From sequence record PP400777: DNA of 64,000 nucleotides; one strand, given 5' to 3'. The DNA is from Escherichia phage JM10. Positions within the stretch are counted from its first letter, which is position 1. Every line of letters begins with the position of its first letter. The translations under genes and the position numbers were made by a program. Under the pieces are notes generated by a model, which saw only the letters and a list, made by a program, of their open reading frames with translations, did no database searches and was not told where the DNA came from. This document shows, piece by piece, positions 8,984 through 37,037 of this stretch.

Positions 8984-9454
8984 TTAATCATGTTTCCACA
9001 CCCCATCAGTATTTGACCAAAGTCGCTGATTATCTGATCCTCGCCACAGCTTTTTAGTCGGAAGATTTTTCTCATACTTCCCATCAATAATAACATCAAC
9101 ATATTTAAGCATTTCTAGTTGTTTAATATCTTCAAACTTATATCCTGTCCACAACCAAATGCTTTTATTTGGATAAAGATTTTTAATAGTTTGAACCACA
9201 GAGTGAATCACATCTCTGTTATCAGGATAGAGAGGGTCACCTCCGGTTATAGTCAATCCTTCTATATAATCATTATTCAAACATTCAATTAATTGTTCTA
9301 GTGTTTCACCAGTGAATGGAATACCATTTCTAGCATTCCATGTTGATTTATTATAACACCCTTCGCATTTATGCAAACAACCTGTGACGAAAAGAACGAC
9401 CCTGCAACCAGGGCCATTCACAAAATCGCAAGGATAAAATCTATCATAATTCAT
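8984..9454 (-). CDS. nrdG: anaerobic ribonucleotide reductase activating protein NrdG (radical SAM)
   Basis: 156 aa; radical-SAM cysteine cluster CLHKCEGCYN. Confidence 0.9.
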   Translation of the reverse strand: MNYDRFYPCDFVNGPGCRVVLFVTGCLHKCEGCYNKSTWNARNGIPFTGETLEQLIECLNNDYIEGLTITGGDPLYPDNRDVIHSVVQTIKNLYPNKSIWLWTGYKFEDIKQLEMLKYVDVIIDGKYEKNLPTKKLWRGSDNQRLWSNTDGVWKHD

Positions 9455-10730
9455 TGGTGTTTAACCCTATGCATGATTTCTTTATTTTTACCAAGATTAA
9501 ATCCGCGTTCGTTCGGATTTCCCAAATAACCGCATGTTCTTCTTATGGTGTTCATCTTTTTAGGATCACTTTCTCCACAAACTGAACAAACAAATCCGTT
9601 TTCAGTAGGAGTCATTTCATGGGTACTTCCACATGTAAAACATTTATCTACTGGCATATTAACACCAAAATAATCTAAATGTTGTGCAGCATAATCCCAG
9701 ACAGCCTCAAGTCCCTTTAAATTGTTTTTCATATCTGGAAGTTCAACATAAGAAATGTGACCACCTGTCGCAATGAAATGATATGGCGCTTCACGAGAAA
9801 TCTTTTCAAACGGAGTAATATTTTCTTCTACTGAAACATGGAAACTGTTAGTGTACCAGCCTTTATCGGTGACATCCTTTACACTTCCATATTTTTCTGT
9901 ATCAAGTTTACAGAAGCGATAACAAAGGTTTTCAGCAGGAGTAGAATATAAACTAAAAGCAAATCCAGTTCTTTCAGACCACTGTTTAAGATGAGCATTC
10001 ATTTTAGTTAAAATTTCTTGTCCAATATCACGACCGACAAGAATATTCAATTCGTGAATACCGATGTATCCCAAAGACACTGAACTTCTACCGTTTTTAA
10101 ATAACTCAATTATGTCGTCATCAGGTTTAAGACGAACCCCGAATGCACCTTCTTGGTAAAGAATAGGAGCTACAGTTGCTTTAACACCCTTTAAAGAACT
10201 AATTCTACACATCAAGGCTTCAAAACACAGATCCATTCGTTCATTAAATAGCTCAACAAATTTCTGTTCATTGAACTGTGTTCCAATATAAGAATCTAAC
10301 GCAATACGAGGAAGATTCAATGTTACAACACCAAGATTATTACGTCCGTCAAGAATTTCATTTCCAGTTGAATCTTTCCATACACTCAAGAAACTACGAC
10401 AGCCCATTGGAGAAACTGGAACTGAAGAACCAGTAATAGCTTTATTATTCTTAGCTGAAATAATATCAGGATACATCCTTTTGCTTGCGCACTCTAAAGC
10501 AAGTTGCTTAATGTCGTAATTCGGATCGTCTTTATAAAGATTAACGCCTTCTTCAACGAACATAACAAGCTTAGGGAAAATAGGAGTTATCCCATCACGT
10601 CCAAGACCTTTAATACGATTTTTCAGAATTGCTTTCTGAATCATTCGTTCGGTCCAGTCAGTTCCCGTACCAAATGTAATTGTTACAAAAGGAGTCTGTC
10701 CGTTTGAACTGAAAAGTGTATTTACTTCAT
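9451..10730 (-). CDS. nrdD: anaerobic ribonucleoside-triphosphate reductase NrdD, exon 2 (C-terminal part)
   Basis: Ends with glycyl-radical motif RRTCGYLG; joined to exon 1 (11776..12313) it gives a 605-aa product reading …DAFQAYE-Y-EVNTLFSSNGQ…. Confidence 0.85.
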
Positions 10731-11775
10731 CATTATATTCAGCATGAGTCGCAAATTCATGCCCGTTTATATGAAACAACAAAATTTGGATAGTCCATAG
10801 ATATGCAACGTTCTTTTATAGTGCTAGGATGAAAATTTAGCGCTTTAGCTGCTTCTATATAAGACGTATACTTAATACCGTCAACAACCACATATTCAGG
10901 AACTTTATGAATAGTAGTCTTAATACTCAAAACAAGAGGATGAGTTTCGACTTCACTTTCAGTGCAATTTAAATATTCCGCTGCTTTTTTAAAACTTCTA
11001 AAAGTTTTATTTTTAAGCTTTATCGATACTTGTTTTTTACTTTTTCGACTATTGATATTATTTTGCACATGTTCCTTAGATCTTCCGTTTTTAGCATAAT
11101 ATTCAGCTACAGAAGATTTTATATTGTTTTTATGAGATTCGGATAACACTTTACCCTTATGAGCATCTCTTAATTTTTGAATATGTTCTTCAGTATCCGG
11201 ATGCTTATAAAACTTTTTACCGCCTATGGATTTATTTAAACATTTTTTGCTATAAAAATATTTACGTATGACCTCTTCTTCATGTTTTAATGCATCTTTA
11301 TAACTATCAAATGTTTTTAAAATTATCCATTTAGTAGGTGTATCAGTTTTTAAGCGTTCATTTATATACTTAGATGACGTTGTGTAAGTTTTCCAGTTTG
11401 TGGGCTTGTTTTTAATTGTTCTAAATTTTTTATAACCGATATAAATGTCGCCATTAGAAAACTTAACTAAGTATGTAAATGCGTCTTTATCTTTTATTTT
11501 AGTACAACGTCTTTTTATCCATTTCATTGTTTCACCTCGTATTCATAAGATAATCTTATTTATACAAGATGACTGCTGCATGTCGCCATGCAGATTAGAC
11601 TATATCTTCATCTTTCGATGCCGGCCGTTTCGAATAGCATTAGCTTCTATTCTACACCGCTACATTCATCACGGTTAGTCGTTAGGCATTTAGTTCAAAA
11701 GAACATTTAGCACGGGATTGTCTACTAGAGAGGTTCCCCGTTTAGACCGGTTTTACATGAGCCTGAATTAAATTA
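10731..11775 (-). mobile_element. group I self-splicing intron in nrdD carrying a homing endonuclease ORF
   Basis: Conserved group I core on the minus strand (TCTAAACGGGGAACCTCTCTAGTAGACAATCCCGTGCTAAAT, AAATGCCTAACGACTA); P1 pairing of exon UAUGAGU with IGS GCUCAUG gives U-G at the 5' splice site; intron ends …GAATATAATG. Confidence 0.8.
10757..11527 (-). CDS. intron-encoded GIY-YIG homing endonuclease (I-TevII-like)
   Basis: 256 aa; GIY-YIG-like N-terminus (YLVKFSNGDIYIGY), NUMOD3-like basic repeats, I-TevI-like C-terminal DNA-binding module. Confidence 0.8.
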   Translation of the reverse strand: MKWIKRRCTKIKDKDAFTYLVKFSNGDIYIGYKKFRTIKNKPTNWKTYTTSSKYINERLKTDTPTKWIILKTFDSYKDALKHEEEVIRKYFYSKKCLNKSIGGKKFYKHPDTEEHIQKLRDAHKGKVLSESHKNNIKSSVAEYYAKNGRSKEHVQNNINSRKSKKQVSIKLKNKTFRSFKKAAEYLNCTESEVETHPLVLSIKTTIHKVPEYVVVDGIKYTSYIEAAKALNFHPSTIKERCISMDYPNFVVSYKRA

Positions 11776-12313
11776 ACTCATACGCCTGGAATGCATCGTA
11801 TACATCTTTTTCTGTTTTAGATTGAGCATAATTCAACGCATCAGCGATTTGCCATTTTTCTGCATCCTCAATATGTTTTGCATAGGTGCGTTTAACATAA
11901 GGAGAAAGAACTTTATCTACATTCGCAAATGTAGTTCCGCCATACTGGTGTGAAGCAACTTGTGCGGTAATTTGTGCCATAATTGCAGTAGCAACACCAA
12001 TAGATTTAGGCGTTTCAATTTGAGCATTGCCTAATTTAAATCCATTCTCAAGCATCCCCTTTAAATCGACTAAACAGCAATTGGTAAACGGAAGAGCAGG
12101 AGAATAATCAATATCATGCATGTGAATGATTCCACTTTCATGCGCATTCATAATAAAAGACGGGACCATATTTTTGGCAATGTGCTTAGACACAATACCA
12201 GCCATAAGGTCCCGTTGAGTTGGAAAAACACGAGAATCTTTATTAGCATTCTCGTTTAAAAGATCTTTATTAGTTTTATGAATCAGTCCTTCAATTTCTT
12301 TTTCAATTTTCAT
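11776..12313 (-). CDS. nrdD: anaerobic ribonucleoside-triphosphate reductase NrdD, exon 1 (N-terminal part)
   Basis: N-terminal 179 codons; the in-frame stop at 11768 lies in the intron just past the 5' splice site. Confidence 0.85.
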
Positions 12314-36880: not shown

Positions 36881-36957
36881 TGGTCGAGGCAGAAGGATTC
36901 TAACCTTCAACCTACGGATTAGAAATCCGTTGCTCTATACAATTGAGCTATGCCTCG
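36881..36957 (-). tRNA. tRNA-Arg (anticodon UCU)
   Basis: Cloverleaf read by eye: acceptor CGAGGCA/TGCCTCG, D stem GCTC/GAGC, anticodon loop TTTCTAA, T arm GAAGG-TTAGAAT-CCTTC, CCA encoded. Confidence 0.8.
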
Positions 36958-36963
36958 AATATA

Positions 36964-37037
36964 TGACCCAGACCAGATTCGAACTGGTAACCTTTCCCTT
37001 ATGAGGGGACTGCTGCTAACCATTGAGCTACAGGGCC
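36964..37037 (-). tRNA. tRNA-Ile2/Met-like (anticodon CAU)
   Basis: Acceptor GGCCCTG/CTGGGTC, anticodon loop CTCATAA, T arm ACCAG-TTCGAAT-CTGGT; the D stem is imperfect as read. Confidence 0.6.

Follow-up and report, generated by a model that had tools for sequence, protein, structure and literature searches.

A predicted group I intron of a separate lineage, carrying an I-TevII-like endonuclease gene, at the T4 intron site of nrdD in Escherichia phage JM10

The sequence analysed here, termed the window in the following, is a stretch of 64,000 nucleotides of Escherichia phage JM10 (PP400777), a T4-like phage (Tequatrovirus). Its gene nrdD, which encodes the anaerobic ribonucleotide reductase NrdD, is interrupted by an insert that is very probably a functional, mobile and self-splicing group I intron of the T4 IA2 type; splicing as well as homing are predicted from the sequence. 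The intron is a discrete sister lineage at the site of the T4 nrdD (sunY) intron and not a copy of the latter. An initial annotation of the window had already proposed an nrdD interrupted by a group I intron with an I-TevII-like endonuclease; that the intron belongs to a second, diverged lineage at the T4 position and that its P4-P6 domain is identical to that of a td intron goes beyond it.

The interrupted gene consists of three parts:

11776..12313, minus strand: nrdD exon 1, 538 nt, codons 1-179 and base 1 of codon 180
10731..11775, minus strand: nrdD intron, 1045 nt, first base T, last base G
9451..10730, minus strand: nrdD exon 2, 1280 nt, remainder of codon 180 to codon 605 and stop

The ATG of exon 1 at 12313 overlaps the stop codon of gene 49, which encodes an endonuclease VII homologue, and the open reading frame (ORF) of exon 1 (12313..11768, minus strand) continues past 11776 for two codons (L-I-stop) into the intron, which is inserted after base 1 of codon 180. 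When 11776 was joined to 10730, 1818 nt resulted which encode a NrdD of 605 amino acids reading ...DAFQAYEYEVNTLFSSNGQ..., with the glycyl-radical glycine at Gly580 in the motif RRTCGY. This joined protein is identical to spliced T4 NrdD in 599 of 606 positions and is matched end to end by the Pfam model NRDD (572 bits). The intronless allele of T2 and 20 alleles from IMG/VR align without a gap across the exon junction and, since the end bases of the intron (T and G) differ from the adjoining exon bases, the boundaries are unique at the DNA level and allow no sliding. The spliced junction is predicted to read ...UAUGAGU followed by AUGAAGUA.... The exon coordinates and the length of the intervening sequence given in the initial annotation hold in all these comparisons; its deduced junctions are exact homologues of those of the T4 nrdD intron and restore the NrdD frame. 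Its mention of an I-TevII-bearing nrdD intron in T4 agrees with RefSeq (NC_000866), in which T4 nrdD is annotated as a two-piece join around I-TevII.

On the evidence of Rfam, a custom covariance model and covariation, the insert is assigned as a group I intron. The Rfam model RF00028, which has a gathering score of 50 bits, was applied to the sub-window 10600-11900 with laxer filters and matched 11811..11576 over the full model length with 70.9 bits (E 1e-17); as controls, the T4 nrdD intron, a td intron devoid of an ORF and a naturally occurring, shortened version of the window intron scored 105.3, 72.7 and 70.9 bits, respectively. For the custom covariance model, R1, the helices P3, P4, P5, P6, P6a, P7.1, P7.2, P8 and P9 were drawn by hand on five sequences, and the model was searched against the window and 35 loci, collected among phage records and by scanning metagenomes for a conserved core pattern. 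Of the 61 cores retrieved in total, a single one was located in the window (11756..11573, minus strand, 199.5 bits), and further group I cores were not found there by this search. Among 52 distinct relatives, 95.0% of the pair cells were paired compared to 59.6% in shuffles, a value that is inflated by the fitting of the alignment to the model, albeit with a margin that is still large. Changes on both sides were seen in 42 of 42 pairs, and pairing fell to 37-42% in controls with slid partners. The core and its elements are located as follows:

11573..11756, minus strand: ribozyme core, as defined by RF00028, R1 and covariation
11750-11745 with 11626-11621, minus strand: core helix P3
11741-11736 with 11717-11712, minus strand: core helix P4
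11731-11721, minus strand: core helix P5
11711-11686, minus strand: core helix P6/P6a
11680-11676 with 11602-11598, minus strand: core helix P7
11675-11656, minus strand: core helix P7.1
11652-11632, minus strand: core helix P7.2
11620-11609, minus strand: core helix P8
11597-11594, minus strand: joining segment J7/9
11593-11576, minus strand: core helix P9

The elements predicted to define the splice sites lie at both ends of the intron:

11776..11782, minus strand: 5' strand of P1, the last seven exon bases U-AUGAGU
11756..11762, minus strand: internal guide sequence GCUCAUG, 3' strand of P1, intron nt 14-20, identical in the T4 nrdD intron
11764..11767, minus strand: UUCA at intron nt 9-12, the guide predicted to form P10 with the complementary UGAA at +2..+5 of exon 2 (10729..10726)
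10731..10733, minus strand: 3' end of the intron, A-U-G, whose final G (10731) marks the 3' splice site
10741..10763, minus strand: 3'-terminal hairpin (P9.2-like), GCAUGA-AUUUGCGAC-UCAUGC, within the last 35 nt of the intron

P1 is formed by AUGAGU and GCUCAU (intron nt 14-19), with U(-1) at 11776 wobbling with G14 and thereby marking the 5' splice site; the hairpin is also the minimum-free-energy fold of its stretch. The exon base G(-2) at 11777, which pairs with C15, is present in all six intron-bearing alleles and in none of the 21 intronless ones, all of which have an A at -2 in the synonymous codon GAA. This restriction of G(-2) to intron-bearing alleles gives independent support for P1. 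The 5' splice site after GAGU and the terminal G, both put forward along with the core in the initial annotation, were thus recovered. For P9.0, a comparison of the window, T4 nrdD and td introns with an nrdD intron from a metagenome contig (L037) suggests pairing of AU (10733-10732) with AU of J7/9 (11595-11594); in T4, P9.0 is UU with AA, a compensatory difference, and P10 is UCA/UGA in the equivalent place. A long-range pairing of L7.1 (AAUGU) with the bases preceding the 3' splice site fits T4 (ACAUU) but is not claimed for the window, because one pair is lost there and the pairing overlaps with P9.0.

Several helices differ in sequence from those of T4. P3 is CCGGUC/GGCCGG in the window and UCUGCC/GGCAGA in T4, P6a is GUUC/GAAC versus CAGC/GCUG, and in the 3'-terminal hairpin every stem pair is replaced in T4 (GUAGAG-AAGUAGCGAA-CUCUAC); the td counterpart is GAUAAG-AUUAACGAC-CUUAUC. 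The differences in P7.1, P7.2, P9.0, the 3' hairpin and a hairpin at the ribosome-binding site (RBS) of the endonuclease gene are compensatory as well, and P8 differs in sequence. Compensatory changes of this kind are expected under selection on a working ribozyme. They bear directly on the idea that the insert is a dead, non-splicing relic whose disruption of nrdD is tolerated because the anaerobic reductase is dispensable. Such a relic would be in keeping with the non-essential role of nrdD under aerobic conditions and with an RF00028 score below that of T4 (70.9 versus 105.3 bits), but we consider it very unlikely, as all helices are intact, the differences from T4 compensate rather than disrupt, neither the U·G pair of P1 nor P10, P9.0 or the terminal G is missing, exon base -2 is co-adapted to the guide sequence and both exons are open, encoding a protein that is 99% identical to T4 NrdD.

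The same elements speak to a second alternative, a split gene that works without RNA splicing, in which two NrdD pieces surround a free-standing endonuclease gene, are translated independently and combine into a two-part enzyme. There is a precedent in phage Aeh1, where nrdA is split by mobE (cited in PMC3653736), and many GenBank records present the locus in just this form: neither an intron nor a joined coding sequence (CDS) is annotated in the records inspected (e.g. OL960581, MK962757, KR269718), and most of the records listed divide nrdD into two CDSs, of which the second begins at an internal codon or a TTG, with a 'homing endonuclease' or 'hypothetical protein' between them. Such an arrangement is hardly credible for the window. 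The complete DNA of a group I ribozyme abuts both coding ends exactly, the break falls inside a codon, the frame of exon 2 has no ATG and as its sole in-frame start a TTG in the 3' part of the intron, and the homologous arrangement of T4 is a spliced intron. The intron junctions permit a correct, joined nrdD CDS in about 43 Tequatrovirus genomes in GenBank. In record OL960581, the region of the P9 hairpin is annotated as a rho-independent terminator.

For the self-splicing intron that we favour, the following course is proposed. In the pre-mRNA, the exon end AUGAGU and the guide GCUCAU would form P1 with the U·G pair at the splice site, the P3-P9 core would fold, and a guanosine bound at P7 would attack after U(-1). 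P9.0, P10 and the 3'-terminal hairpin would then deliver the terminal G, which lies ~830 nt downstream of P9 and past the ORF, to the active site, and exon ligation would yield the message for the 605-aa NrdD.

The ORF within the intron and its expression signals are located downstream of the core:

10757..11527, minus strand: homing endonuclease gene, 771 nt, 256 aa, downstream of P9
11557..11564, minus strand: T4 late promoter consensus TATAAATA, upstream of the endonuclease ORF and within the RBS-masking hairpin (5' arm)
11533..11571, minus strand: RBS hairpin, which pairs the Shine-Dalgarno (SD) sequence GAGG (11538-11535) of the endonuclease gene

By homology, the ORF is assigned to the I-TevII-like homing endonucleases, as the initial annotation had it, and its product is probably a GIY-YIG/NUMOD1 enzyme. 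The 256-aa product aligns over its full length with the 258-aa I-TevII (56% identity, 72% positives, E 1e-101) and shares with it the motifs TYL...YIG, HEE and LNKS. Pfam SegE_GIY-YIG (PF19835) matched the N-terminal nuclease domain, barely passing the cutoff (26.6 bits, cutoff 25), and NUMOD1 the C-terminal DNA-binding module (25.3 bits, cutoff 22.8); PHROG 314 (homing endonuclease) matched with E 4e-29. The ORF ends with TGA at 10759-10757, which forms part of the 3'-terminal hairpin (5' arm). In phage SA20RB, which is nearly identical, the TATAAATA motif carries a late-promoter annotation. The RBS hairpin has a predicted folding energy of -17.3 kcal/mol (z -6.3) and is 12 nt longer than its T4 counterpart (-10.8 kcal/mol). 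The longest run of identity between the window and T4-type introns, the 19-nt TATGAATACGAGGTGAAAC (11547-11529), is found at the SD sequence; it sits in the 3' arm of the hairpin and extends 4 nt downstream to 11529. Together with the preceding CT it gives CTTATGAATA (11541-11550), which is identical to the nrdD junction of intronless alleles. The late transcripts of I-TevI, as well as those of I-TevII and I-TevIII, start inside such a hairpin, which frees the RBS, and these endonucleases were proposed to bind an operator resembling their homing site (PMC2988022). By analogy, CTTATGAATA may be a putative operator for autorepression of the window endonuclease.

Several observations weigh against a functional and mobile intron. 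Since nrdD is dispensable in aerobic laboratory growth, the viability of the phage is no proof of splicing. P7, which was tested as a pseudoknot, is invariant across the alignment and hence uninformative, and the fit of that alignment to the model has been mentioned above. On the side of the endonuclease, the canonical Pfam GIY-YIG model (PF01541) gave 10.3 bits and thus remained under its cutoff of 22.6, a sequence search of the Protein Data Bank (PDB) matched no solved structure, and in a MAFFT alignment with I-TevI the N-terminus was too poor to place the catalytic Arg or Glu with confidence. Finally, an Rfam scan of the whole 64-kb window with default filters and the gathering threshold returned two tRNAs only and no intron. 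This last result was rejected as a sign of absence, since the sub-window scan scores 70.9 bits and the miss is a filter artefact; Rfam thus supports the group I core of the initial annotation above the gathering score in the sub-window and leaves it unreported in the default scan of the whole window. A default-filter scan of a long sequence can miss an intron of this kind.

The relation to the T4 intron was determined by comparing exons and intron separately. Exon 1 and exon 2 are 93.1% and 95.0% identical to T4 at the nucleotide level, but the 5' ribozyme part is only 68.1% and the endonuclease ORF 62.3% identical; in blastn, the window intron aligned with the T4-type intron over 97% of its length and was 66% identical. 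A copy transferred recently would be nearly identical to the T4 intron, which these values do not show. A 1.3-kb query around the intron matched 820 phage records, 43 of them at at least 99% over the full length. Sorted by allele, the phage collection contains 619 records with an uninterrupted junction region, ~43 with the window-type and ~25 with the T4-type intron. Among the carriers of the window-type intron are phages JK45, SP21535 and N2. Likewise, tblastn with the endonuclease against 50,697 phage records yielded 44 matches at at least 95% and ~24 at 56% (T4 and close relatives), none that was intermediate, and otherwise weak partial matches (<35%) to seg-like genes. Because of the contrast between intron identity (62-68%) and exon identity (93-95%) and because of this bimodal distribution, the window-type intron has to be regarded as a separate lineage. 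It is apparently undescribed so far: no description of a diverged nrdD intron variant was found in the literature, although the library searched was limited and this is no proof of absence.

The exon flanks differ with the type of allele. Window-type alleles have CAGGCGTATGAGT upstream and ATGAAGTAAATACACTTTTCAG downstream of the insertion site, T4-type alleles CAAGCTTATGAGT and ATGAAGTGAACACGTTATTCAG, and intronless T2-like alleles CAAGCTTATGAAT and ATGAAGTAAATACTCTCTTTAG, the T2-like intronless junction reading CTTATGAAT directly followed by ATGAAGTAAATACTCTCTTTAG. At +8..+20 of exon 2, the window sequence departs from T4 as well as from intronless alleles by synonymous changes that are specific to its type. 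The cut of I-TevII, which we take to be 13/15 nt downstream of the insertion site, would fall within +8..+20, and the window endonuclease and I-TevII may prefer different targets. An intronless record with a window-type flank was not found in the phage collection, the best match being 91.8% over 61 nt; this combination had been looked for as a footprint of precise intron loss, and no such footprint was detected. The strict linkage of flank and intron type is what co-conversion of exon flanks during homing (PMC2988022) predicts.

These findings are in line with a homing cycle that would run as follows. The endonuclease would be produced late from its own TATAAATA promoter, and the late transcripts, which would lack the 5' arm of the hairpin, would have an unmasked RBS. 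In a mixed infection, the endonuclease would cut an intronless nrdD near the insertion site, and repair would copy the intron together with a short tract of the exon flanks into the recipient. It is conceivable, albeit improbable, that the ribozyme splices while the endonuclease is inactive or decaying, so that the intron is immobile and inherited vertically only, as is the case for the nrdB intron of T4, in which I-TevIII is truncated. Decay does occur in the lineage. Phage 215Ecol030PP (PP328843.1; locus L024, 1148-1626) has a naturally shortened, 479-nt version of the window-type intron that lacks 566 nt inside the ORF, and with them most of the endonuclease gene, but retains the ribozyme, promoter/hairpin and 3' end, as is usual for the decay of homing endonuclease genes, and a few records have the ORF in two pieces; the unmatched canonical GIY-YIG model points in the same direction. 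In the window, however, the ORF is intact with 256 aa and 99.6-100% identical in ~40 phages, and promoter, SD sequence and hairpin are conserved, including the longest run identical to T4. The same atypical motif occurs in I-TevII, which Table 1 of PMC2988022 gives as active, and the intron-linked exon flanks suggest homing with co-conversion. The ~40 phages, in which the endonuclease is 99-100% identical, were isolated independently from several hosts and countries.

One segment of the core is shared with a td intron:

11676..11746, minus strand: td-identical segment, intron nt 30-100, starting at the 3' end of the P3 5' strand, including P4-P6a and ending with the P7 5' strand

In 71 of 71 positions, this segment is identical to the td intron that phages HMD-9 (locus L028, ~1985-2055) and N2 (ON645936) carry in an ORF-less form, and in 42 of 42 positions to the ORF-bearing td intron as far as the insertion point of I-TevI, whereas the T4-type nrdD intron differs at ~17 positions. 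Outside the 71 nt, the cores of the window nrdD and td introns are ~70-75% alike. The ORF-less td intron is present at at least 99% in 34 records, and one of these phages, N2, also has the window-type nrdD intron. An exchange between td and nrdD introns within a genome is suggested by these sequences as the simplest reading of the 71-nt identity. The P6a hairpin of the ORF-less td intron (GUUC-UUUU-GAAC) is no simple deletion of the I-TevI-bearing P6a, and the absence of I-TevI from the td intron of ~34 phages, whether by loss or from the outset, may go back to the same P4-P6 exchange. To our knowledge, domain exchange between introns has previously been seen only in laboratory crosses of T4, and the 71-nt identity would provide a natural example. 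Taken one step further, two lineages might compete for one nucleotide of nrdD, the window-type being a chimera with the P4-P6 domain of td whose endonuclease specificity drifted to match the +8..+20 flanks. We offer this as a tentative idea that is rather doubtful at present; if true, mixed infections could lead to the exclusion or replacement of either nrdD intron by the other.

The element itself is of an ordinary, known kind and leaves the general understanding of such elements unchanged. Since the T4 introns are the textbook model of homing, an I-TevII relative of 56% identity at one and the same site, with exon flanks of its own that were probably co-converted, constitutes a natural pair, which allows asking how endonuclease specificity and target sites co-evolve.

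In the neighbourhood of the intron, the stop codon of nrdD and the start codon of nrdG overlap (ATGA, 9451-9454). The window has no mobC homing endonuclease gene between nrdD and nrdG; T4 and phage SA20RB have one there. The only tRNA genes in the window are those for Arg(tct) and Met(cat) (36881-37037, minus strand), 6 nt apart; T4 has a cluster of eight tRNA genes.

Ribozymes of the same family interrupt td and a terminase gene, too, and are found at other positions in nrdD: near aa 282-289 in Vequintavirus and Vibrio phages and near aa 268/307 in metagenomic contigs. Two 140-kb metagenome contigs (L037, 2415-3560, and L039; minus strand) contain an nrdD intron with a classical GIY-YIG ORF in P6 and a 3' tail, GCGACUCUAGCUGAAUAUAAAUG, that closely resembles that of the window; their nrdD is a distant relative (30-45% aa identity) with a second, ORF-less intron near aa 268/307. 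That the former intron occupies the T4 site, as a tblastn match starting at aa 179 seemed to indicate, was rejected, since the inferred junction is 7 nt downstream. Four contigs from human gut metagenomes (L048, L055, L053 and L041) have two to six cores of the family each, with six in L055 and five in L048; their nrdD is split at ~aa 277/289 and, in L041, L053 and L055, also near aa 446.

Among known systems, the closest is the nrdD intron of T4, which is self-splicing and mobile through I-TevII (PMC2988022, PMC1865063). It is inserted at the same nucleotide (codon 180, base 1) between exons of the same lengths, 538 and 1280 nt, and shares with the window intron the guide GCUCAU, a helix set without P2 but with P7.1 and P7.2, an ORF after P9 and thus a remote 3' splice site, the 3' hairpin, the late promoter and the RBS-masking hairpin; its length is 1033 nt compared to 1045 nt. 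The td intron belongs to the same covariance-model family and has a similar J7/9 and 3' tail (UGAAYAUAAUG), but it resides in another host gene, has another guide sequence and P1, possesses P2 and lacks the long L7.1; where it has an ORF, this is located in P6a and encodes I-TevI, which is 24% identical to the window endonuclease and aligns poorly. The nrdD introns at other positions match R1 with 70-125 bits, share the host gene and often bear an endonuclease. They differ in that their ORF is in P6 rather than after P9, or missing, and in that their endonucleases are of unrelated types (a winged-helix protein, classical GIY-YIG). The nrdB intron of T4 and RB3 with I-TevIII, an endonuclease prone to decay by deletion (PMC1865063, PMC2988022), is likewise a group I intron of T-even phages situated in a gene for a ribonucleotide reductase and parallels the deletion in 215Ecol030PP, but it interrupts another gene and carries its ORF, for an HNH instead of a GIY-YIG endonuclease, in another loop.

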